Shown here one piece after another: positions 8,201 to 64,000 of a stretch of DNA of 64,000 nucleotides. The notes below the pieces were generated by a model. The model was not told the origin of the DNA, made no database searches, and saw nothing but the letters and a program-made list of their open reading frames with translations. The first letter of the stretch is position 1. Each line of letters begins with the position of its first letter. The DNA comes from Flaccisagitta enflata (lineage: Eukaryota). Both the position numbers and the translations under genes were made by a program. The stretch is from NCBI GenBank assembly GCA_965153355.1, contig OZ231126.1, positions 6,200,001 through 6,264,000 on the forward strand. Reading direction: 5' to 3'.

Positions 8201-9627
8201 GAAAGATGGATAAAAGTGAAAGATGGACAAAAGTGAAAGATGGACAAAAGTGAAAGATGGACAAAAGTGAAAGATGGACAAAAGTGAAAGATGGATAAAA
8301 GTGAAAGATGGATAAAAGTGAAAGATGGACAAAAGTGAAAGATGGACAAAAGTGAAAGATGGACAAAAGTGAAAGATAGATAAAAGTGAAAGATGGATAA
8401 AAGTGAAAGATGGATCTAAGGACAAACCTGCTGTGCCTGGAGAGAAGCGTCCTAAATTCGCTCTTTAATGCATCGCAACCATGGTCAAAAAGCTCTTGAA
8501 GATTCACCTGAAAGGTGGGAAGAGCGTTTTTCTCATCTCATAGATCGTTCCAGCACAAATCAGACCGTGATTAAGACTACTTCAAGAAAAGACATAAGCT
8601 TTACTAACATACATGCGATCTTTCTCAAATTGAAGTTCCCTTAAAAAACCACCGCACCTGTTCCACCGAGTCGGGGCAGTTGGTTTCAAAGTAGGCGATG
8701 GCGGCCTTGATCCTCTCCAGACTGTCCACGTAATTGTCGAGGCGTCCGCTGGGACCTTCGCGAATCAGCGTCTGCGTGTTACGAGCGACGTCGTAGTAAC
8801 TGATCACGTGCTCCAACACTTGCAACGTTTTCTCTACGTTCTCCTGCCTGTGTAACAGAAAAGAAGAGAGTGAGGATAGTAGAGAAAACAAAAGGAGGAA
8901 AGAAGGAAAAGAGAGGAGAAATAATTGGAAGAATGACGTTAATATGAAGATTTCTAAATTTTGGTTGTAAAGTAATGTTGTCCAACTCATGGAGCTGCAC
9001 CGCTTGCTGTAGTGGATCTGCATTTCAAAGCAACCGAATGACTGAACGACTGACTGAATGACGGAATGAAGAAAGAATCAATTGAGAAACCTGCGTTGTA
9101 AAGTGGCGGTTTCCGTGTAGACGGGGGTGATGGTGTTTTCCAACTTGGCGAGTCTGCCCTCGAATTTGGACAAAATGTCCTCCATTTGATGCGTCGTCGT
9201 CTCATGACGAACTAACAGATCCTTTTACACGACAAATGAACGCGTGTCATAAAACATATGTACAATTTTTATACATTTTCATGCCAAATCAACTTTCCCA
9301 ACAGCGCGCGCCTTTATAAGGCGGGGACACTCAAGAGTCAAGATGAGCGTTCGCATGCGGCAACTCAACATTCATTTACACATTCAAGAGTCGTAATCAA
9401 AGATCCCTAGTAGGTAAACTTCGGAAGGTCCTAGAAGAACCGAGGATCTCATTTGCATATTGCAGTGATCATACTTTATTTCATTTGAACAATTTCTTTA
9501 CCTTACAGTAATAAAAGCATCTAATGAAGGGGTAGTCAACCGCGAAATATACCTGCAAATGTGAGAGTTGCGTTTGTTCGCGGTACAGTTTCTTCTGAAT
9601 TTGACCTTTGAAATGGACATCTCCCAT
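674..9627 (-). CDS. EXOC7: Exocyst complex component 7 (Exo70), 5' portion; gene continues off the left edge
   Basis: Phase-compatible GT-AG exons 9553-9627, 9091-9221, 8658-8847, 8428-8507, 7458-7688, 4316-4447, 3384-3466, 2786-2865, 2310-2439, 1657-1772, 674-859. Peptides MEDILSKFEGRLAKLENTITPVY, QENVEKTLQVLEHVISYYDVA, LFDHGCDALKSEFRTLLSRHS and LPEDGTVHQLTSNVLSF match Exo70 (recognised from memory). Confidence 0.93.
891..1441 (-). mobile_element. HINE-like element family D carrying internal minisatellites (other copies 14022-14318, 14316-15080, 15150-16972, 17168-17868)
   Basis: Inverted GGGCAGCGGCCCC.AAGGG..GTCCTGTAG.ACACAGGGGG motifs flank tandem arrays, e.g. 21-bp GAGGCCTGAGAGGCTGGATTT at 14640-14970 and 17275-17545. 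Confidence 0.72.
1780..2160. repeat. G-rich degenerate minisatellite (about 33-bp unit, GGGTGGG blocks) just upstream of an Exo70 acceptor
   Basis: Units like GGTAAGGGGGTGAAGATGTGGCAGGGTGGGC. Confidence 0.85.
2913..3097 (+). mobile_element. HINE-like short element family C (other copies about 13866-13995, 16133-16283, 17893-18022, 23415-23722, 44205-44335)
   Basis: TTTTAGTCGCGG..CGACTCTATAAG-(GTCC)n-CCCCTGCCC..CCGCGACT..GGCCGTGTATCCGGCCTTGTT. Confidence 0.75.
5560..7146 (+). mobile_element. HINE/DINE-1-like element (family A) whose 130-140-bp head is tandemly amplified 7-8 times
   Basis: TTTTAGATGCGTCCTCGCATCTCTATAAGAGG + (GTCG/GTCC)n heads at about 5560, 5695, 5825, 5963, 6100, 6238, 6370, 6510; 3' end GACGCATC...GGCCTTGTT at 7118-7146; short reverse copy at 34957-35065. 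Confidence 0.75.
8021..8413. repeat. 17-bp minisatellite (GGACAAAAGTGAAAGAT) x about 23 in an Exo70 intron
   Basis: Direct reading of the tandem units. Confidence 0.95.
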
Positions 9628-29700: not shown

Positions 29701-32700
29701 CAAAACTGAAAGATTAAGTGATAATCGGGGACGGGGATTAACACCATCTTGAGCAGCTCCTTCATTAATTTTGAACTCTAGTGATTTTACACAAGTGCCG
29801 CTAGACGACAGTGCAACTTACCTTTCAATAATCGGGTAACGAATCAAATTCTCCGAGGTAAAATTATCACAGTTGAGAGCGGCATCGCGTTCCCGTGAGG
29901 ATTTGATCTTGATGCCGTGAAGTCGGGTGTCAATTCCTTCGTCTTTGCACTCTGAGATTGGAGGAAGGAAAGAAGCAGAAGGAAAGGGAGGAGGAAAGGG
30001 AGGAGGAAGGGGAGGATAAGAGGAGGAAACGAGGGAAGGATAAGGGATAAGGGAGGATAAGGGAAGGAAATGAGGAAGGCGAGGAAAAGTAGAGGAGGAA
30101 AAGAGGATAAAAGCGGTAAAATTAAATTTACACCGATTCAAGAGTAAATACTTCTTACATTGTTTTCGTTGAAGATATGCCAACTACTTCAGATCTTTAA
30201 TTGTTTTGGGTTGACATGGAATGTTTGAGGAAATAGTCTCAATCAGAGGAAAGGTTTTTGATTTTAGGCTGTTGGTTGCATGAGCCTTTTACAATGGGAA
30301 GATAAGATGGATGTGAGGGATATTTGGATTAGGCCCCTCCATTCAGCACACTCATCTTGTATTCTTTCTTGTCACTGGCACTTGTAGCAAACAGGTGAAA
30401 ATCACTGATTTTTGCTATTGACGGGATGGTTTTTTTGAATAATTTCATGATAATGCTAAGATGGTCTTAGTTGTTCTTTACTATTAAGGATAATTGTGAT
30501 GGGTCCGGATTAAACACCATTGTGAACTTCAAAGGCTCTCATTCTGGGAGTAGTAGTGTTGTCCAACTTCCATAGTACTTATTCACGTGCAGTCTATACA
30601 TGTTGTCATTCGGTCATACCCGAGTAAAACGGTAATACCATTCCCGAGTAAAACGCTAATACAATTCTTTCTGTCATTTACCTTTCACCCTGATTTCGAG
30701 ACAAGGATAGAAGGTGGCGGCGTCTTCTAAGATGCAGACGTCGCCGGAGAAGGTAGAATCGACTTTGGTGTTGGCGAGGAGTTTGAGATGTTCGGCATCG
30801 ATGCCGCCCATCACCACAATGTGGTTCGGCATGTAGTTGTCGTCCCCGGCGTCAACCGTCACTAACATCTTACGTATCACCACGCCTGCGATGAAAGATG
30901 ATAAGGATCTCCGACACGGGGTTTGCATGGCTTAGACAGGCATTTAGTTAAGACGGTGAACGGTTAAATGAATTTGTTTCAGCAAGAATGGATCGTGTGA
31001 TTGGCGCCTACACAAAAAAAAAGCGTCTTTATACACCCACCTGGAAGTGAGCCTAACCCAGCGCCCGCAAAGATTGCCTCAACATACCCGCCTGATCCTT
31101 GGATCTCTGGAATGCGTGCTCAGATTGCCTTGACTTACCCGCTTTTGTATGAAGCCTGATCCAGTGCATGCCCTGATTGCCAAGACCCACCAGTGATGAC
31201 CCTGATTGCCTCGACTTACCCGCTTTCATATGAAGCCAGATCAAGTGCGTGCCCTGATTGCCTTGACCCACCAGTGTTTGCCTTGATCGCCTCGACTTAC
31301 CCACTTTCATATGAAGCCTGACCCAGTGCGTGCCCTGATTGCCTCGACCCACCGCCACCAGTGATGGCCCTGATCGCCTCGACTTACCCGCTTTCATATG
31401 AAGCCTGACCCAGTGCATGCCCTGATTGCCTCAACCCACCAGTGATGGCCCTGATTGCCTTGACTTACCCGCTTTCATATGAAGCCTGACCCAGTGCGTG
31501 CCCTGATTGCCGTCCGATTCCCAGTAAGTGTTGGGATCTCCGTCGAGGAGGTTTTCTTTGTCATCGTCGTCGCAGGAAGTGGACACGTCCACAGACTCGA
31601 TGTAGTCTTTCACGTTGGCCAAGTTGATGTTGTCGCAGCCGCCTTTGTCGTACAGGAAACGCACCAAAGATTCGTCACATTCACGTCTACGCGCGGGACG
31701 AAGAAAACCGAGAGGGCCAAAAGGAGGGTTTGGGTTTATGGGGAGGGAGAAAAAGTATGATAGAAATGGGAACATTTGAGGAAACGAGGGGCTTGTAGAG
31801 GGGGAGGAGGGGGGGGTGGCGGTGGGGTAAACGGGAATGACAAATAGGGGCTTTGTTTGACTTCATATTTGATAACAAAACTGTCAAAAGTACAATCCGT
31901 TATCAAGTCCATATGGGGGCCTTCACTCACTATCCCCTCATCGCTCTACTGCCTCTACACATAACTAGTCGACTACAAATTACCGTCTCAGAAAAGTAAG
32001 ACAGACTGTTTGCATAACCGGCCATATCTCGTTCAATATCTGTAAATTACACTGTACGCAAAAAAAAACACAAACCTCCATCTGGTGGATATTTCTCTGA
32101 GCCGCTGGCTGGCTTGTTCGTGGACATTGACTACTGCAGGCAGTCGACAGAGTTTAAGCGCGAATGAATATTCCACCAACTGCTCCCAGTCGGAAATCAC
32201 GACCTCTTTGCGACGCCAAGAAGGCGGAGGAGGAGGAGGAGTAGAATTGGTTTTCGAAGAGGAAGAGAAGGACGAATCTTTATTGTCGACGGGAATCAGT
32301 AAATGACCTGCAATGACACAAAACCAGTTGAAAAGTTGCATTATCAAATATTTTACTGGATACAAACTAGGGACGGGTTGTTCCCCTGGTTACAAACTGG
32401 GAGAGTTGATTTAAAAACCATCAAAAGCAGGCGGTAAGTTTTACCGGTGTTGTTAGGCGTTTGGGCTGAATAGAGCAGGCACGTTTTAGCTGAATAGAGC
32501 AGACAAAAGGCGGGCAATTGGGCACTAACCATTCATATTTGCATTTCTAGGCGTTTTGCGGTTTGAGCAGAGTAGAGCAGGCTAGAGGCAGGCAATTAGG
32601 CAATCACCATTCATATTTGCATTGTGCGGAATTTGGGCAGAGTATAGCAGTTACCAGATGGGCAATTAGGCACTCACCATTCATATTGGCATTGTGAGGA

Positions 32701-34041
32701 GTTTGAGCAGTCTAGAGCAGGCATCAGACGGGCAATTAGGCACTCGACATTTATATTGGTATTGTGAGAAGTTTGTGTACACTAGAGCATGCACCAGATG
32801 GGCAATTAGGCACTCACCATTCATATTTGCATTGTGAGGAGTTTAAACAGACTAGAGCAGGCACCAGATGGGCAATTAGGCACTCACCATTCATATTTGC
32901 ATTGTGAGGAGTTTAAACAGACTAGAGCAGGCACCAGATGGGCAATTAGGCACTCACCATTCATGAATCATATTGGTATTATGGGGAGTTGGGGCGGAGT
33001 ACCAAGTAGGCAATTGGGCACTTACCATTCATATTTGCGTTGTGAGGCGTCTGGGCAGAGTAGAGTAGACACCAGGCGGGCGATCCGTCTTTGGTCACCT
33101 CCGACACGACGGGACCGATGCATTTCTTTAGCACGCGTAACCATTGCCCTTCCGCGTTGCAAAATTCCTCGCCTACATTTGTCAAACGAACCATGAAATA
33201 GGTCATAGCCATGAATAGGTAATGATGAATCAAGAAGGGGGTGCGGTAACCTGATGCGACAGGGGTCGTCGTTTATTGACAGATGCAGGGGTGGTGGGGG
33301 GGTGCGGTAACCTGATGCGACAGGGGTCGTCGTTCATTGACAGATAAACGTGGGGGGGGGGAAGCGCTGCTGCCGGCAGTAACCTGATGCGACGATGCGA
33401 CAAGGGAAATCCTCGACGGCCTTCAAATCGCCGATTTTCTTGGAAGGAGACGCGTCAGCTTCCGAATAAATCCCAAGCTGGAAAAAAATTTCCAAATGCG
33501 ATACAATTTAACCCCAATCTTACATACCCGCTACTAACGGAATTCCGCCTATATTTCATGCAAAACCAAAGTACCCTCAACACATTTCGTTTCATTTCCT
33601 GTAATGGCTGTTGAAGAATTCCGCCTGTAGAGTGTAGACTGTTAATGTAAAAGACAAGATTTGTTAGTCCCTTGAAATACGTTAGAGCGAGATTTAACAC
33701 ACTTCCTCACACTAGCTCCATTACACCCACCCAAGCTTGCTTCCTTGCGCTCAGCCTCTTTATATCGAGCGCTAGCTCTCACGCACTTGCTCGCTCGCTC
33801 TCGCTGATCCTTACCCTATCCCTCATGAATGCACTCTCCCGCTCATGGACTTGGTCACACTCTCGATTTCAGGCTACAAGCGTGTCCTCACCTTGCCGCA
33901 TGGCGCCAGAGCGTACTCGACTTCGGCGGGGACGAAGCATAATTCCTTGGGAAATGGTTCTCCGTCTTTGAAATGCTGAATGCATTGAGAGACGCAACGA
34001 ATGCGAGCGAGACGCTTTTGACAGACGTCCAACTCCATCAT
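22414..34041 (-). CDS. HECTD3: E3 ubiquitin ligase HECTD3 (DOC + HECT domains), 17 exons
   Basis: Exons 33892-34041, 33384-33477, 33026-33172, 32076-32307, 31469-31686, 30682-30885, 29822-29951, 29599-29705, 28775-28933, 28391-28511, 28006-28137, 27524-27643, 25419-25524, 24959-25040, 24655-24821, 23850-24001, 22414-22657. DOC motif [20 protein letters not shown] motifs [16 protein letters not shown] and [16 protein letters not shown]-terminus [16 protein letters not shown]...[15 protein letters not shown]. Confidence 0.95.
22617..23072 (-). repeat. 69-bp tandem array x7 of the HECTD3 last-exon acceptor plus exon head
   Basis: Unit ...CTTTCAG|ATTTACCAACGAGGATCGTTCTCGTTTCCTGCGTTTCGTGACT; only the innermost copy continues into the exon. 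Confidence 0.93.
24279..24400 (+). mobile_element. HINE-like short element family B (reverse copies 2482-2616, 4665-4785, 20922-21058)
   Basis: TTTTAGGTGCGACAAAGCACCTCTATAACTGG-(GGTC/GGTT)n-GTCGCACCT...GGCCTACTTGGCCTTGTT: subterminal inverted repeats, microsatellite, 3' hairpin. Confidence 0.75.
25234..25411. mobile_element. Short MITE
   Basis: TIRs GGGGGAGTGGGGCCATTTGGGACACGGA and TCCGTGTCCCAAATAGCCCCACTCCCCC; related right end at 59195-59222. Confidence 0.75.
29060..29211. mobile_element. 152-bp hairpin MITE, TA TSD
   Basis: ta|CAGACGAAAGTGAAATACAAGAAGTTAACCC...GGGTTAACTTCTTGAATTTCACTTCCGTCTG|ta. Confidence 0.75.
31053..31510 (-). repeat. 81-87-bp tandem array x5 of a HECTD3 DOC exon tail plus donor
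   Basis: [21 protein letters not shown] repeated; donors at about 31467, 31386, 31299, 31218, 31137. Confidence 0.9.
32460..33080 (-). repeat. About 70-bp tandem array x8 of HECTD3 exon 3 tail plus donor
   Basis: ...CACAATGCAAATATGAATG|GTGAGTGCCTAATTGCC repeated and degenerating with distance from the exon. Confidence 0.88.
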
Positions 34042-35187
34042 GCCATGACTTCCACCGGAAGTGGGAACGAGAAAGGAAAACACGAGGCCGAGCTCAAATA
34101 TAGTGCGATTCGTGCATCCAGACTTAAAGGAAACGCCGAGTAAGGGGAGGCTCGAGGTCTATGACGGAACTGAGCTGATTATTTGAGTTTCTTCGCGTTC
34201 ACTTACGAAGATTCAGTTGTAAATCATTTGGAAATTCCGACCTAATTTTCAGTTGCTCGGTGCTTCAGAGCAGTCACAACTCTGGTCCAACTAATCTTCG
34301 CCGAACAACCGCCCCGTTGATGAACAAGTAAAACCGCCAGCGAATGTATAGTTTCAATAACTAATACTACAATTTATCTTAAGACTGCAAATAGAACAAA
34401 ACAACAATATAATGTAGAGATTCGATTCTGAAAAAAAATCTGCGTATATCGATCCGGTCCCATGAGGCGATGAGAAGAATCCATTTGCTACGATATGCGA
34501 GCTTTGCATACAACTAGGTTTTCGCATTATAGAACGGAAGATAAGGCATGTTAAAACGAATCTAACACGCGCCGTGTTTAACTTTAAAGCGAAAAATTTC
34601 AACCGTTAGCATTGAGGGAAATGCAATGCACATCTCTTGCCGTGGATTTCATTCATGCAGATTTTGCCCTTCATAAAATGACAAAAGCTTGGAAAACTCG
34701 ATCAAGTAAAACGATAAAAGCAAAAGGCAGCGAAAAACTCAACGACATTCATACGCGTGACTAAAAATTTATCAACTAAAATGCATCATCCAGGTGCGCT
34801 TATCGTGGCCGCATTGTCACTTGACAAGGGCCCGTAGCGGCCTAAGAAAATAAATAAGAATCGCCCGGTTTGAATAATCGGTATCCGAAAAAAAGATACA
34901 TCCGGGCTAGGACTAGAATGGAACGAATACAGAAAGTTTTGATGGAGAAAAAGGAAAACAAGCCCGAGCGCGCAACTAGATGGGTCATCTGCGTGATATT
35001 AGAAGAGGCGTAACGGACGGACGGACGGACAGACCCTCTTATAGAGATGCGATGACGCATCTAAAAAGAGAAAAGATAGAAGATGTTGAAAGAAATTGAA
35101 AACAATAAATGTACGGAGAGAACCTCAACGACAACAACAACAAAAGCATCAACATCATCAACAACAACCTCAACAACAAGGCCAAAA

Positions 35188-36848
35188 CTATGGTATCATG
35201 AGAAAAGTTGAAAAGGCGAGTTGAATGATAATAAGGAAATGAAGAGAAACAAAGGACGAAGAAGAGGCGTGATTTCGTAAGGCGTTTGACTCGGACTGAA
35301 GGACGACGACTTTCCGGAAGATCTCGTCGAGTTTCTCCTCCAATTTGAGGAAATCGGAAGTGATGTTCTGTTTGGCGTCGACGATCTGCTTGGAGAGGTC
35401 GCCCGTGATTAAAGATGAATGATGAGAAAAGATGTTGGACAATTGATGCTGTAAATCTCTGCGCGAAAAATGAAAAGTTTCGAAAAGTGCCAGTTGAAGA
35501 GTTTCAGCTTAGTCGATTGCGCAACTGTTATCTGTTATCTGTTAACTGTTATCCCGCCTGTCACAACTATGGATTTTCAGTTGCCTTTGAAAGTGAGCCG
35601 CGATGCCAACGACAACATCGACAGTGATACAGTGCATGACTGCTCCTGCCCAATCGCTGACATGTTGGCGGTGCATTCGTTCATTAGCGGCGATGTGGAC
35701 TTAACTATTCTCTATTTGTTACAATACCAGGCGGCGGAATGACAGGCGGCGGAATGACATCTCGAGATTATCTGTTTTTATGTTTACAGAAGTCACCGAT
35801 ATGTACAAAAACAAACTAGATTCCCCACTCTACCTATGGTCAGCTTTGGCTTGTTCTCCCGCGCGTCTGATTTCTCCGAGTATGTTGACAGTGAGAGCCT
35901 CCGAGTGGGGAGTGGATAAATCACAGACTGGGTTTTGTTTCATCGCCAAAATAATCACCAGAAGACACAAAATGATCACGAACAAAACGATCGCTAAAGA
36001 AGAAGAAGTAACACAGAGAGACGGCAATCAATTTTAGTGGAACTGAGCAGAATGAGCGAGAAAATGAGTTTAAAGCTCATTTCTTTTGACGTGACTTTAC
36101 ATGCAATCGAGAACGTTCATTCACACAGTAATTGTACATATTGCATGAGGCAAACCAACTAGCTGGACAAGTACTGATTGACCCTACCATAATTTGCATT
36201 TTAATAGAAACGTTGTCACGCTGACGTATGAGGAGAGCATTTATTCATTCATTTATTTTTCGAGCATTCCCATCCCCTTCATACTCAACAGAAACATTGT
36301 CATATACCGACGAACGAGGAGAGCATAGAAGTACAGCGCTCATTTCATTTGACTAAACTTAGTTCATTCTTTAGTTCATTCATACCCTTCATATTCAACG
36401 CAAACATTGTCATACCGACAAACGAGAAGAGCGTGACGGACTTTTTTAGCGCCTTGTACTTCTTCCTCATATCACTTTCCGACGGAGAATAATTTGTATT
36501 TCTACGATGAGTATTGTATTCTAATTGCGAGGTCTGTTGATGGTGCGTCATGCGGCTGCCGCCGATGCCGAGGCCACTGCTGCCGCGACCGAGGCCACTG
36601 CCGCCGCGGATATCGATGCCGCTGTCCATACCAATTACCTCCTGAGATTCGAGAATTCGTCATCATGCATCATCGTTCTCCTCATCCAAATTATGATTCG
36701 CACCAACGTCATTTTCTTCATTATCGTTCTCTTTTTTAGCCTTGATCATCAAATTTGTCATTATCATTTCCATCATCATCAATGCTTCATTAACTCCGTC
36801 ATAGTTCTCACCAGCCAGTCCATCATCATCATCATCACCTTCGTCGTT

Positions 36849-36903
<55 letters not shown>

Positions 36904-39900
36904 CCTTCGTCGTTTTCATCATCATCATCATCATCATCATCCCTACATAACATTCAACAGAAGTATTCATCACCATCTTCGCCATCGTCAACATTTCCCT
37001 TTCCGATGCGTACCCTGCCTCCTTGCGGGGTGCTGGAGTAAGGCGGGGGTCCATCGGGGGGCAAAGAGAAAGCCGTGACGTCGGGGGCGTGTGCCGATGG
37101 CGTCGTCGTCGTCATCATCATAGTCGGCGTCGACGTCGCCGCCTCTGAAAAGAGGGGCGCCGAGGAAATCGGCGTCGATGCGGCGTCGGTCTCCGTAGGT
37201 AACAGAATTCCTTCGTGCAAAACGGAAGCGGAAGCGGCGCCGCGTTCGTCGTCGGAGGCGGCGAGTAAAGGCTCCGACCTATTATATCAATTGAATAGTT
37301 GGAAAATCCTCAACAGAGTCTGAGAAAGCCAACCAGGAAAGCGATTGTACCAACTAAGTTATGTCTCAACATAGTGTACATCATTATATTTTCAACTTTC
37401 CTATCTAACAAAGAATAAGGGGCCATTTGCAACATGCAAATAAACACTATTCTGCAGTTCCTCTACTTGCTATCCGCCAAACCGTACCCAAACGTAGTCA
37501 AGCCTTACATACACCCCCCCCCCCGACTCTCACTCTGCGCCCTCCCCACTCGTGATCGTTTACTCCCACAAAAACCCACAAAAACGTGACGTGGCGAAGA
37601 AACACGATCTCTCTTCGACCTTCGCGGCTTTCCAAGAAAAATCATCAAAAAACTGCTTCAACCATAATGTAATCGGCTGTAAATACACTCAAAATTCCAT
37701 CTTTTTGTTCTCCACCCAACTGCAAATTTTCATCTCAATCAGTCAACGGGAAGGGTCAAAACTTTGAAAGAAACTACCATTATTAATGGGATTGATTTTA
37801 TTTCATCATCAAAAAAAATCGCTATCGTGGTCTCACTCTCTCATCGCCTCATATTTGTTTGGAATCTAAAGTCCAAGTTGAATCAGTTCTCCAACCTCGG
37901 TCTTCTTGTGTATCAACTACAGCTAAGAATTTGTGTTACAAAACCGTTTACTCCTTCGCGGCTAAAAAAAATTACTTCACAGAGCCAAAGACTGAATCTT
38001 ACTGAAGGAAATTGTCATCTTTCCGCGTTAATAAAACTCAAGACATGGAGAAAATACAGCATGATATTGCGCAACTGGAAAAAGAGTCAAAAGAAACAAA
38101 TGAATGGAAAACCAAAATGGATGCTCTACTCATGACCTTCAAAAAAGGTTTTGAAGGTTTTGAAAAAGTCGTGGAAGGCATTAACAATAATCATACAGCT
38201 TTGAATGAAACAATTGCCATGCTAACCATTAAAATGAAAAATCATATCACAAGTGCTGATTCCTTCAAAGCCCAAGTGGTTAAGCATCAGGTTGCCTCAA
38301 AAACCGAACTTGAAGCCTTCAAAGCCCAAGTGGTTAAGCATCAGGTTGCCTCAAAAACCGAATTTGAAGCCTTTGGAAAGAAATTGACTAAATCACAACA
38401 ACAGTTAGATGCAACAAGTCGCAAGTTTACGGAGGAGATGGAAAAAAACAGGCGTATCAAAGATGAATTGAAGACCAAGATGGATGCCATTGGAGAAAGA
38501 ACAACATCAACTGACGTCAGATTACAGGAGCTCCAAACCGAATTTCAAGCCATCAAGGCAAAAGTGGATGAAATTCACAATTCTGCACCAAGTTCAACCA
38601 ACCCTGCCACAATGAATAAAGGCACACCTGTGCAATTTGTTCCAGAATGGGTCTTGCGCGAACGAAAGAGAAACAACATCATCATTTTTGGTCAACAGGA
38701 AACAGATGACGATCTTGCCATGATCAAATTGCTTGCTGGTGACTTGAACCTGGACCTGGATCCTTCTACGGACATTGTTCATCATTTTTGTGTTGGAACA
38801 TCAAACAGTAGCAATTTGCGCCCCCTGGTTGTTAAATTTGTATGCTCAGAAAAAAAGAGGGCAATGCTCCTGATGGCAAAGAAGCTGAGAGGAATGGAGA
38901 AATGGAACGGGGTGATTATCACTCACGACATGACAAAATTGGAATGTCAAGTGGAAAAAGCATGGGAGATTAAATTGCGGCAAGATGCTGAGCATTTGAA
39001 CAATTCTCTTACTGCAGATGAAAAAAGCGTCAAGTTTTTCAAAGTTATTGGCGGCTGTCGCGAGCGAAGAATAGCATGCTTTCCCATTAAATGACTCACT
39101 AACTTAGAGACCATAAGAGCGCAATGATCAAATCAGATTTTTTTTCTCTCTTTACAAATGGTTTTTTAGTATCATAAAATCTTTAGTATTTGCTCAGAGA
39201 ATAATCACTGATATCATTTGCACTTATAAAAGCATCATATTTGCTATTTGGAAGTATTTATAGTCTTTATCTTTATATATTGGAAAGTCGTTGAAAATTT
39301 TGGTGAATATGCAACTTTTTCCTTTATTGATTTACACTTTTGATTTTTAAAACTAGTGACTGGTCAATTTTGGATATTTTGAACATAGAATTTTTAGCAG
39401 TTGCATGGTAACAATTCTCGCTTTTGGTTCTTATGAACTACTGACTGGTTAATTTTCTTTGCCACGTAAATTGTAATTCGACGGAACAGCTATCATCTCG
39501 AAGAGCAAGTCGTAAAAAGCTTGCTTCCTTTGATAGCTTAAATTTTATATTATATTAATTGGGATACATCATGCACGCCATGGGGGAGGCTTTCATAGGT
39601 CAAGAAAAATTCTCGGTCATAATGGGGAGTGGTTTTGGCCTTAAGAAGGTTTACTCTATCACTTTATACAAAAATGAAAATTTTTTTACTTCAAAATTTT
39701 TGTAAAATGCCGTAAAATGCCGTAAAAAGCCGTAAAATTGGCATTTTTGACAGTTTTTTGGGTCCAAAACCGCCACTGTGGTCAAAAAATGGGCAAACAA
39801 TGATTATTTAGTACTAAAACATATTCATGCATAAATACATGCCAACTCATCATCAAAAAATGCCATTTTTATAGCTTTTTACGGCATTTTACGGCACAAA

Positions 39901-40403
39901 ATAATACTAAATGATGACGGGTTGGCCTGTATTTATGCATGATTGTGTCTTAGTGCCAGATAATCATTGTTTGCCTATTTTTTCACCCTAGCGGTGGTTT
40001 CAGACAAAAAAAACTGTCAAAAATGCCAATTTTACGGCATTTTACGGCATTTTAAAAAAATTTGAAGTAAAAAAATTTTCATTTTGATATGAAGTGATAA
40101 AGTAAACCACTCTCCATTATGACCGAGAATTTTTCTTGACCTATGAAAGCCTCCCCCGTGGCGTGCATGGCGTAGGCAGGAATCGTTTGACGCCCCCCCC
40201 TGTTCTGTCGACGCGGCGACTCGCCTGAGATCATCGATGAGAGTGAGTTGGTCGCAGAGCGGGCATTTGGGGATTCTGGAGACGTGGCGCCGGATGCAGG
40301 CGTCGCAGAATTCGTGTCCGCAAAGTGTCGTCGACGCCGGAAATGGAATCGGCGTCACGTGACAAATACCGCATCCGGAAGAAGACGCGCAAGAGCCAGA
40401 CAT
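35188..40403 (-). CDS. Uncharacterised RING-finger type II membrane protein with coiled-coil ectodomain and putative GPI signal (366 aa, tetherin-like topology)
   Basis: Exons 40225-40403 (C3HC4 RING; GC donor AG|GCGAGT), 37014-37278, 36416-36641, 35834-35993, 35188-35458. Phases 2/0/1/2 are all compatible; total 1101 nt with no internal stop. TM VTLFSFVAIVLFVIILCLLVIILAM follows RKKYKALKK; C-terminal hydrophobic tail FVSLHFLIIIQLAFSTFLMIP*. Confidence 0.7.
38045..39094 (+). mobile_element. Non-LTR retrotransposon ORF1-like protein (coiled coil + RRM-like region), intact ORF, no ORF2; nested antisense in intron 1 of the RING gene
   Basis: Uninterrupted ORF (ATG 38045). A long coiled coil is followed by RERKRNNIIIFG.QE, RPLVVKF and LRG...VIITHDMTKLE motifs typical of LINE ORF1 proteins. 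Internal 51-bp duplication FKAQVVKHQVASKTE(L/F)EA. Confidence 0.75.
39570..40169. mobile_element. 600-bp palindromic MITE in intron 1 of the RING gene
   Basis: TIR CATGCACGCCATGGGGGAGGCTTTCATAGGTCAAGAAAAATTCTCGG and its reverse complement at 40123-40169; internal ATGCCGTAAA repeats; no clear TSD. Confidence 0.85.
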
Positions 40404-43400
40404 GGTTGAGTTCTTGTTTAAGTTATGGGTGATGAATCAATTGATTCATGGGTGATAAATCGGTTGATTGGTGATAAAATCAATCAGTTGAATGATAAAC
40501 CAATTGACCCCAATTTTAATTGTGCTCAATCCATGGGGCCTTTATTCACCCGGTTGTGTTTCTAATATCTTCACGATTACTGCCGCGTTTGAAGGAGAGA
40601 TCTGCCCGCCAACAGTGAATATACCTCGCCAGCAATCCCACACACGCGTTACACGCCGTCGTGATTGCACTGCCAGTCTTTCTAAGTTGGCTGTGGATTC
40701 GTTCCTCCACAAACGCAATTTAAAACAGATGGACGCGGGCCGGCATCGAGTGATGTTTACACTTCATCACCGAGCCTCACGTGAATTGTACATAAATGTA
40801 TATAACTAGTTCATTTTTATGTATAATTGTATATAACTAAGCCATTTTTATTGCTCTGGATTTCCTTTTTACTCAAATCATTAGGTTCCACTTAGTTCGT
40901 GAATAAATGCAGCTTGCTTCCACCACACATTTTTTTTGTCTGTCACATTTTCTCCAGTTTTTTTTTCTCCTCTCAGAAGAACTGATTTACGCAATCCATC
41001 CTTAAAATCGAAAAAAAGGCTAAGTAAATGTACACATTTTTTTTTTTGACTCATCATGCAATCGCTTATTTTTCTTTCACTCCATTTTCTTCCCGCAAAA
41101 TGTTTCCAAAGGAAAGAAACAATCACACTCTCCCCCAAATATATAGCCAATTATATGACATAAAATTTTTTGTGAGAAAAAGGTTACGTTAAATGAGCAT
41201 TGCTTATTAAGCAATGACTTTTAAAAAAAAACAACATGTTGCTCCCTTATCAATAATTCACCTAGCTTTTTTTCCACTTATCAATAATTTCATATTCAGA
41301 CCGCGTCGATGGTAGAAAGATAGCTTTTTTCCCCGTCTGTAGCTTATGTAAGAATAAAATAATTGAAAATGTTTCATATGTTTCATAACAGTACAAGTCC
41401 TATCATTTGCGGTCTCTCTTTTGGTCACTGGCTATCGTCATCATCATCAATATGAACCCAATTTTATACCTTGCGGTTACTGTGAAGCTTATTTCTGGAA
41501 AGAGACCAGGCTTAAAGTGCTAACTTATAAGTCATGATAAATCTATAATGATAATTCAATATGGACTAAACATTTATTTAAGTTACTTATCAATATGATG
41601 TTATCCTACGAAATGCTCCTTTAGCTGCTTTAGGTAAGTCTTCCAAGTATTTTTAACACCGCAAACGTACTCAAACTCGACGGTCATCATTATGTATCGC
41701 TCATAGTTAATCTTTTTTAGAATGTATAATGTTTATTTCTAAGAATTAAGTAAAACTAAGTTTTCCATGTCTTCGAAAAGAACGCGTTAGACAAATCCTT
41801 TCTTTATAAAATTAGATAGTCGACAAAAAAAAAACGTTTTTTATTGCCCATGATTTGACTTAATGTAGAAATAGTACTTTGGTTCCATTGACAATTGGGT
41901 CTAAATAGTGGGAGAGAGAGAGAGAGAGAACATGCAAAGGAACGATCAACGTGTATCAAATATGCAAATTATATTCCGTTAAGAATCGAGAGACATATGT
42001 CGAAATAAATAATCCGGGTTTTTACTAGATCCACATTTATCTATACTCTATAGTGCAGGGTTTTTTTTTCATACTCGGAGAGAGAGAGAGAGAGAAAAAA
42101 ATGAGACAAATTTCGCTTCTTCTTATCAATACGTATGAGAGACTTAGTCTGGTAGAAGATACTTGCTTTCCTTGGAGCGATGATACAAGTACAAGATACT
42201 ACACGAATTAGAGACTTTTTTTTTCAAGCGGAAATAAGTTTTATTTGGCGTGATCAAACATAAACAGATAATCAAAAGAGAATCATTCTTGAAACAAGAT
42301 GTTGCCCCGCAAAAAATGATACTAAATGGAAAAGATAAAACGGTGTACAAAATAAAATCCAGAAGGCAGAACAAACGCTTTTTTTTTCTTTGTGGAGGGA
42401 CAAGAGGCGGGGTAAGGCAAAAGCTATGCCACGCCAGGGCATAGTAAAACCTTGCAAAACTAACATATATAACAAATTGCGTGAAGATGAGCGTGATCCC
42501 GTGGAAAAAAAAAGCCTTTGATTATTAATAATCGCAATGACACACAAAAGTATAAAAAGTCCTTTGCTTTTACTGAAGTGAAGGGAGGGAGAGAGAGAGA
42601 GAAAGAGAGAAAGAGAGAGAGAGGGAAAGAGAGGTATACACCTCTTCGCATTCAGACGAATACAGACAGAAGCAAACGTATCAAGACAAAACAGCGAGAG
42701 CAAACTAGATTCGGACAGGTCAGCATCAAGTCAGCGACATTATGGGACAAGATGAAGAGACAGCTGATCTCTAGTGTCAGAGATGGAAGAAAACACATAT
42801 CTATTAAGTGCGGTTAACATACATAAAATCTATGTTTCATCAATGATACATACAAATCAATGTCCGAGCAGCAAGGCAATGAATCAAAAAAATCAAACTG
42901 TTTTTCATGTGATTATATGTCATAGCTTTATAATTATATAAGCGTGGTGATGCGGATTCAACAGAAAGAGAACAATATTTTGGAGGGTAGAGAAGGGGAG
43001 AGGATCTTTGGTGACAGATAAAAGGAAATGAAACGAGGAGACATCTTGGGTACGGCAGAGAAAAGAGAGAGAGAGAGAGAGAGAGAGAGATGAAATAAAT
43101 AGCAAAAGCGAAGATGAAAATGATGGGAGATGTTCTGAAATTTTGATGTCCGAGATATTTCGCCAAATGGTTAATTTGTGGGTCCATTACTGAGTTAAGT
43201 GCACCCAATATAATATTCAAATGTTTAGCTAAATGGTTTTTTATGTTGCTGAAAATACGCGAACAGTACCAACCAGTAATCAAAATATCATCACAAAATC
43301 GGGGGGATATATCTTTTGATGAAAATTTCAAAGCTTTCCTTTTTCCCAAATAAAACTCCACTGACTGATTCAATAAGGCATCCAAATATTTTTTTACATT

Positions 43401-46405: not shown

Positions 46406-64000
<17,595 letters not shown>

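Follow-up and report, generated by a model that had tools for sequence, protein, structure and literature searches.

A five-exon gene of Flaccisagitta enflata predicted to encode an unnamed membrane-anchored RING protein with a PPxY motif and a helical ectodomain

A 64,000-nt stretch of Flaccisagitta enflata contig OZ231126.1 (positions 6,200,001 to 6,264,000, hereafter the window) raises the question of what kind of protein is encoded by a candidate gene on its minus strand, between window positions 35188 and 40403, and whether this protein acts as a tether in the manner of BST2/tetherin. A sequence-only reading had joined five short open reading frames (ORFs) into a protein with a RING finger, a PPxY motif, a transmembrane (TM) span, a coiled-coil ectodomain and a glycosylphosphatidylinositol (GPI) signal, and had proposed an invertebrate tetherin-like restriction factor. 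Judged from sequence, the locus is an intact gene for an unnamed membrane-anchored RING protein and the gene model is sound. The protein appears to belong to a lineage-restricted orphan family that is unnamed, uncharacterised and, besides the window, known solely from environmental sequence.

Gene model and relatives

Conceptual joining of the five exons on the minus strand gives an in-frame total of 1101 nt, encoding 366 amino acids (aa) and a stop codon. The parts of the gene, in the order of transcription, are as follows.

40225-40403, minus strand: exon 1, 179 nt, residues 1-59 plus 2 nt; the N-termini of the relatives align here
40401-40403, minus strand: start codon, with A at -3 and an in-frame stop 11 codons upstream; the first in-frame ATG after that stop
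40254-40373, minus strand: C3HC4 RING finger, residues 11-50; Pfam zf-C3HC4 on exon 1, E 5.2e-8, 33.1 bits versus a cutoff of 21
37279-40224, minus strand: intron 1, 2946 nt, GC donor CAG/GCGAGT and AG acceptor, filled with mobile DNA
37014-37278, minus strand: exon 2, 265 nt, variable Ser/Thr/Pro/Ala-rich linker and conserved block HAPDV..LPPDGPPPYSSTPQ
37038-37049, minus strand: PPPY (PPxY motif), residues 137-140; LPPDGPPPY is identical in 6/6 family sequences
36416-36641, minus strand: exon 3, 226 nt, GIDIR block, Gly-rich insert, basic MRKKYKALKK and the first 7 TM residues (36416-36437)
35834-35993, minus strand: exon 4, 160 nt, remaining TM (35941-35993), juxtamembrane segment KQNPVCDLSTPHSEALTVNI and start of the ectodomain helix
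35923-35925, minus strand: Cys247, within juxtamembrane KQNPVCDLSTPHSEALTVNI of exon 4
35188-35458, minus strand: exon 5, 271 nt, remaining ectodomain helix, sequon, tail and stop codon (35188-35190)
35359-35367, minus strand: NIT sequon, exon 5
35269-35271, minus strand: conserved N340, exon 5
35191-35268, minus strand: hydrophobic tail of 26 residues, exon 5

All four acceptors are AG, each behind a pyrimidine-rich run. Donors 2-4 are GT and donor 1 is GC. The GC donor fits the consensus at 8/9 positions, compared with 3-5/9 for each of the six GT alternatives that are in phase and inside the open frame; the best of these (40141/40140, 5/9) lies inside a foldback element, the outer arm of which supplies it. 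Upstream of the conserved part of exon 2 there is a single in-phase AG acceptor. Approximately 350 nt of intron 1 is neither mobile DNA nor open, as stops are present, which suggests that an intron was present here before the insertions and was later swollen by them. An ATG/ACG-rich run in exon 2 (TMMMTTTT) makes the linker longer than in all relatives.

A search with the exon-5 peptide returned three unnamed proteins of 317-322 aa that also bear a RING, and a region search added a fourth full-length relative (4 matches among 1221 candidates). These four proteins (P0001-P0004, 317-322 aa) are colinear with the window protein through all four junctions at 59-66% identity. The window protein keeps 137 of the 148 columns that are invariant among them, including all RING ligands, a retention that on these alignments is far beyond chance. 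The four reside on contigs of 1.1-1.5 kb, lengths that we infer to fit spliced mRNA. Frames, splice signals and colinear relatives therefore agree on the joining of the five ORFs in compatible phases, and the translation contains every motif that had been named in it: the RING ligands, GPPPY, the Gly-rich stretch, RKKYKALKK, a 25-aa TM, NPVC, NIT, SNA/NHA, the Ser run and the hydrophobic end.

A profile search over 1.84 billion representatives gave 216 matches at E <= 0.001. Counted by profile positions matched, 11 of the best 150 are family members (P0004-P0012, P0014 and P0021). Ten of the 11 were read individually, together with two RING-only examples, and the other 138 listed matches were judged by profile positions; nearly all of these 138 start at profile positions 1-15, i.e. 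match the RING only. Among the matches listed, likeness to any other protein is at the level of the RING alone. Several family fragments break at the exon boundaries of the window gene. In P0005, P0007 and P0155 the likeness stops immediately behind STPQ(GN)R, at junction 2 (the end of exon 2). P0006 carries a 32-residue insert exactly at junction 3 (the start of exon 4) and ends at ADHR, which is junction 4, and P0010 likewise ends at ADHR. These fragments are genomic-looking, and since their breaks coincide with junctions 2-4, those junctions are supported; junction 1 is not. P0021 (ENA) is 97.9% identical to the exon-3 ORF of the window, including the read-through into intron 3, which points to the presence of the same or a sister organism in environmental assemblies. 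Marine metatranscriptome runs also contain near-identical pieces of the window.

Six family lineages share the position of their C-terminus. Onward splicing of the last exon to a lumenal domain, which had been considered, has no counterpart among the relatives from the profile and region searches: none of them continues beyond this end into another domain, and the longest family member has 322 residues. As seen, the family comprises five clusters with long members plus fragments, and has few members overall; no member found comes from NCBI, UniRef or an annotated genome, and none is named in any source. The paralog expansion that had been raised for this gene was not borne out in the 64,000-nt window, in which tblastn found no paralog. 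Three further searches added no relatives: a metagenome contig scan with RING patterns only gave 4 loci (L001-L004) that match the RING alone and are uninformative for the family; a scan of viral contigs with the exon-4 peptide found 115 stretches fitting the pattern, none of which was a relative; and an ESM Atlas search with P0003 residues 150-322 returned no usable match.

Protein domains, constraint and membrane topology

The RING ligands are invariant in 5/5 RING-bearing members, and the nearest solved RINGs in a PDB sequence search are those of TRAF6 (E 6.8e-9, 38 bits), BRE1 and PEX10. By these comparisons the RING is a canonical C3HC4 finger of RING-type E3 ubiquitin ligases, as first proposed, and E3 activity is predicted. 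Pfam scans of the five exon pieces and of five family proteins gave no above-cutoff family outside the RING, and PDB sequence searches of the outer part returned noise only (ectodomain best E 0.084). Membership in a known family with another function, which had been considered as an alternative, was not found in these searches, with both Pfam and PDB giving the RING only. One candidate, the Pfam domain SLATT_4 (a two-span effector domain of prokaryotic conflict systems), matched 3/5 proteins at 15-19 bits versus a cutoff of 27; these sub-threshold matches cover the TM and ectodomain helix (residues ~155-280 of P0001-P0003) and were set aside as probable transmembrane bias.

Constraint was measured as mean pairwise identity per region. 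The values are 0.66 for the RING, 0.22 for linker 1, 0.82 for the PY block (HAPDV...LPPDGPPPYSSTPQ), 0.36 for linker 2, 0.79 for the TM, 0.83 and 0.76 for the ectodomain, and 0.13 for the tail. Linker 1 is not alignable between members and is longer in the window protein (72 residues). The TM and ectodomain together show 76-83% identity without indels, compared with 13-36% in the linkers and tail. On these values strong constraint acts on the PPxY block, on the TM with the juxtamembrane segment and on the ectodomain helix, and not on the two linkers or the tail. The PPxY motif of the sequence-only reading is present, and the nine residues LPPDGPPPY that contain it are the same in all six members. 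AlphaFold2 gives P0003 residues 51-155 a pLDDT of <50, and the low values around the motif suggest that it probably lies in a disordered, accessible cytosolic segment, with WW-domain binding being putative.

To compare hydrophobic segments, the apparent insertion energies of the best 19-mer were summed, a crude measure. TM1 scores -7.5 in the window protein and -6.5 to -7.5 across the family. It is preceded by 216 residues, the last of which include five basic residues, the MRKKYKALKK cluster adjoining the 25-residue span. The basic cluster on the N-terminal side of the TM, together with the need of a RING for cytosolic E2 enzymes, points to a type II orientation. A single type II TM acting as a signal anchor is therefore predicted, in line with the topology assigned at the outset.

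The ectodomain measures 98 residues in five members; in P0158, a divergent member, it measures 96. It contains one Cys in 6/6 members, within an invariant KQNPVCDLS, and one NIT sequon in 5/6. For P0011, a natural fragment consisting of ectodomain and tail, AlphaFold2 with a 9-row alignment produced a single helix at 12-96 (pLDDT 92-96 over blocks 21-80), then a break at KAGP and a tail helix at 101-121. The full-length model of P0003 (pLDDT 55.9, used for secondary structure only) has helices at 206-247 and 251-293 with a break at 248-250, at lower confidence. The ectodomain is thus predicted by modelling to form one long helix, and the long helical ectodomain with one Cys and one sequon holds as described. 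The clean heptad spacing reported for it holds in part. By a crude count of a/d positions, the final 35-40 residues of the ectodomain have 7/8 hydrophobic core positions in one register, compared with 5-6/10 in the earlier part, and shuffled sequences reach the same maximum in 13-36/500 trials for the five close sequences and in 0/500 for P0158. A two-copy complex prediction of P0003 residues 196-296 scored 0.01 relative to a mark of 0.32; the alignment was unused and controls were not run, and the score speaks neither for nor against a dimer.

The topology depends most on how the C-terminal tail is read. A GPI signal combines a small-residue attachment site with a short polar spacer and a hydrophobic end that is marginal and unconserved, and some classical GPI proteins also have a few polar residues at their extreme C-terminus. 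All six members contain a conserved N-x-small triplet (NHA, NSC, NIS, NDA, NFS and NKA), and 25-33 residues follow the conserved N. The hydrophobic core has 10-22 uninterrupted residues, with the cores broken by H, Q, D or R, and for the best 19-mer of the tail the insertion sum comes to +0.8 to +7.2, well short of TM1. GPI signal peptides typically carry a hydrophobic region of 15-20 residues, as part of PMC12786357 describes them. Identity of the tail between members is 0.13, compared with 0.79 for TM1. The triplet, the short polar spacer and the marginal, unconserved hydrophobic end lead us to read the tail as a GPI-attachment signal, an assignment from sequence that we hold to be slightly favoured; a weak second membrane span would be nearly as probable. 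The tail thus has the look of a GPI signal that had been ascribed to it (N-x-A/S/C, 25-33 residues to the end, a 10-22 residue core and 13% identity).

If the tail were instead an uncleaved weak second TM, the protein would be a two-span hairpin RING ligase with both ends cytosolic, and the 98-residue helix would form the lumenal loop or stalk of an E3 of the endoplasmic reticulum or another endomembrane. AlphaFold2 makes the tail a helix (301-321 in P0003, 101-121 in P0011), and in two of the six tails the hydrophobic core is followed by 7-9 polar and charged residues (HEFQNFYRV and KNYLFDD), an ending that fits a short cytosolic end after a second span and counts against a GPI signal. However, the insertion sums of the tail are approximately 0 to +7 versus approximately -7 for TM1, the short and interrupted cores are ill suited to a span, and the disparity in identity between tail and TM1 gives no sign of two co-evolving packed spans. 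The N-x-small triplet is also conserved at a distance typical of an attachment site. Considering both sides, we regard the hairpin ligase as rather unlikely.

Proposed function and comparison with known proteins

Our tentative proposal, held at slightly less than even confidence, is that the protein is an orphan, lineage-restricted, double-anchored or hairpin membrane RING E3 or NEDD4 adaptor for regulated turnover or signalling, rather than an antiviral tether that acts independently of its sequence. The 216-residue N-terminal part, with the RING, PPxY motif and basic cluster, would be cytosolic, and the very hydrophobic TM would serve as a type II signal anchor. The 98-residue ectodomain would face the lumen or exterior as one long helix and may pair via its single Cys. 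With the tail acting as a GPI signal, the protein would become a double-anchored rod, its C-terminus being lipid-anchored or weakly embedded. Since the TM and ectodomain are the most conserved parts, we suggest that the segments in and beyond the membrane recognise one particular, conserved partner: the TM, juxtamembrane segment and helix would bind this fixed partner, either within the membrane or outside it. The RING would then ubiquitinate this partner or the protein itself on the cytosolic side, and the PPxY motif would recruit a NEDD4-family ligase, leading to an endocytic or multivesicular-body route. Tight conservation of the membrane and outer parts in a nameless family with no Pfam domain beyond the RING argues for a specific function.

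Besides the polar ends of two tails, several points weigh against this proposal. The partner, E3 activity, WW-domain binding and compartment are all inferred. The insertion sums and heptad counts behind the topology are both crude. The ORF of P0158 (224 aa, 38-40% identical to the other members) has neither the RING nor the NIT sequon, and the RING may thus be dispensable for the core function of the family. P0158 could represent a RING-less paralog, or else an isoform or a transcript whose splicing was incomplete. Conserved in it are PPDGPPPY and MKQNPVCDLS as well as the TM, the heptad helix and the hydrophobic end, and this retention of PPxY, TM, Cys, helix and tail in a protein without a RING suggests that a PPxY-TM-helix module is the core of the family. 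At the 5' end of the gene, the non-canonical GC donor 1 has no support from relatives: P0005, P0007, P0008 and P0155 run from RING to PPPY unbroken, with no break at junction 1, and these relatives may be without intron 1. The last such point comes from RNA. Eight sequencing runs share 15-26% of sampled words with the window, and four of these (X1, X5, X6 and X8, from four studies) were compared over 32000-43000. In the reads and contigs of these four runs over this interval, the exons have zero depth and none of the four joints is listed.

The words shared with the runs stem from the mobile DNA of intron 1 (37583-40100) and from simple repeats at 35013-35067 and 36815-36948. Raw reads of the polyA run X8 gave only partly fitting reads, on a repeat; approximately 6% of the run was read, and a species match was not established. 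The RNA outcome neither supports nor refutes the junctions, and is absence of evidence rather than evidence of absence. Of the four junctions proposed by the sequence-only reading (40225/37278, 37014/36641, 36416/35993 and 35834/35458), none was seen as a joint when mapped in the four runs; the latter three are backed instead by the breaks in the relatives.

These observations also bear on the possibility that the window copy is silent or mis-joined at its 5' end, with use of another donor (the in-phase GT at 40141/40140, adding 28 residues), skipping of the RING exon, or no transcript at all. The 2.6 kb of mobile DNA directly behind the RING exon would be in keeping with this, as would the zero exon depth and lack of joints in four runs, the GC donor with relatives that show no break there, and the existence of a RING-less family member. 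Against it stand the five open frames with good splice signals, including a GC donor at 8/9 compared with 5/9 for GT 40141, the 137/148 invariant columns kept with all RING ligands, and the ~350 nt of non-mobile, stop-bearing intron 1 sequence that places the intron before the insertions. We consider a silent or mis-joined copy very improbable.

To our knowledge, tetherin is the one well-studied protein that is widely described with a TM helix, a coiled coil and a GPI anchor. Pfam presumably includes a BST2 model, yet no such model appears among the Pfam matches to E = 10 for five family proteins or to E = 1 for the five exon pieces. The predicted order of the window protein (cytosolic N-terminus, type II TM, helical ectodomain with Cys and sequon, GPI-like C-terminal signal) resembles the tetherin layout outlined in passages of PMC9599465. 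The differences are substantial. Where BST2 has a short tail with Y-x-Y, the window protein has 216 cytosolic residues that include a RING and PPxY. The ectodomain contains one Cys rather than three, and the window family has no link to interferon or viruses. The TM and ectodomain of the window family are strongly conserved, whereas tetherin is fast-evolving; mammalian tetherins are 28-47% identical and contain positively selected sites, according to the portion of PMC9599465 that treats them. The tetherin-like layout of the sequence-only reading therefore remains plausible for the order of the outer parts, and fails on sequence relation to BST2, on the size of the cytosolic part and on constraint, which is reversed.

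This reversal bears directly on the earlier argument that activity would depend on topology and not on sequence. In the window family the membrane and outer parts are the best conserved (76-83%, no indels, 98 residues in five members), compared with the 28-47% given for mammals in that portion of PMC9599465, and the argument does not hold here. Its loss removes the main reason to postulate a tetherin-like restriction factor; tethering itself would be compatible with the pattern. A convergent, non-vertebrate tether would consist of a disulfide-linked, parallel coiled-coil rod with TM and GPI ends that bridges the cell and budding virions or vesicles, with the RING and PPxY adding ubiquitin-driven uptake or signalling. 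Such a tether would draw on the predicted 85-residue ectodomain helix, on the resemblance of the tail to a GPI signal and on precedent: tetherin activity is reproduced by an artificial protein of unrelated domains, and PLVAP gains restriction when given a GPI signal, as stated in parts of PMC3715405 and PMC9599465. Set against these are the conservation of the TM and ectodomain without indels, a cytoplasmic part that is not a short tail, the lack of a paralog in the window and the small number of family members, the lack of relatives among viral contigs or of any sign of conflict, and the lack of a link between the gene and infection. We judge the tether improbable. As the sequence-only reading had supposed, no RING-bearing or non-vertebrate tetherin-like protein was found in literature searches, subscription journals being outside their coverage. 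If the layout were true, it would provide a second, independent example of the TM-coiled coil-GPI arrangement and the first fused to a ubiquitin ligase, and would offer a simple setting in which to study the use of a double membrane anchor beyond antiviral defence.

Regulated turnover or signalling by a membrane RING protein, as we tentatively propose, can be compared with several other systems. Small RING ligases such as RNF5/RNF185 and RNF182/RNF186 have two C-terminal spans, and the hairpin arrangement would be alike to them in layout only. The window family shares with these ligases and with RNF152 a C3HC4 RING at the N-terminus, on the cytosolic side, and one or two hydrophobic segments towards the C-terminus, and differs in its conserved 98-residue helix between the hydrophobic segments and in the preceding PPxY. 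NDFIP1/2 and yeast Bsd2, which are PPxY adaptors of NEDD4-family ligases, compare with the window family in its invariant PPPY in a cytosolic disordered stretch beside a membrane span; these adaptors are multi-span and are not known to carry a RING. TRAF6 is the best solved sequence relative of the RING, with the likeness confined to the 55-residue finger, and the window protein lacks the TRAF zinc fingers, TRAF-type coiled coil and MATH domain. PLVAP/PV-1 is likewise a type II protein with a helical ectodomain. It lacks a RING, PPxY and C-terminal hydrophobic tail, and showed no sequence relation to the window protein in any search; the relevant part of PMC9599465 calls it tetherin-like and without a GPI signal.

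Intron 1, repeats and other features of the window

Two elements account for much of the mobile DNA in intron 1.

39565-40174: foldback (MITE-like) element, 610 nt, inside intron 1, 51 nt behind the RING exon
38006-39094, plus strand: coiled-coil ORF of 362 aa, within 37583-39557 of intron 1, on the strand opposite to the gene

The foldback contains nested inverted repeats of 71 nt at 94%, 59 nt at 88% and 143 nt at 86% complementarity. The coiled-coil ORF, which we take to be probably the first ORF of a retrotransposon, carries a 54-nt tandem duplication at 38257-38364 and gave no Pfam match above the cutoff. In X1, X5 and X6 (three studies) there are contigs 97-99% alike to 37583-39557.

Intron 2 contains a long GAT/ATC-type microsatellite at 36815-36948. 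Just 3' of the gene, a short GGAC-type repeat at 35013-35067 reaches a word depth of ~28,000 in X1 and attracts >13,000 partly fitting X8 raw reads, among which back-joints are numerous. This repeat is either dispersed or expressed and has nothing to do with the gene. Immediately downstream of the stop codon, at 33835-34976, X5 contains low-depth contigs (2-6) at 98-99.5% identity, with no long ORF there. These could be a long 3' untranslated region of the RING gene or DNA carryover in an RNA library.

The window as a whole contains spliceosomal introns, abundant microsatellites and mobile DNA. Pieces of other genes recognised in it are as follows.

8625-9077, minus strand: exon with an Exo70 N-terminal domain, E 2e-9
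31431-31862, minus strand: F5/8 type C-like piece, E 2.8e-4 (weak, below cutoff)
54591-55001, minus strand: tyrosine-phosphatase piece, E 7e-13
57644-58105, minus strand: second tyrosine-phosphatase piece, E 1.4e-3

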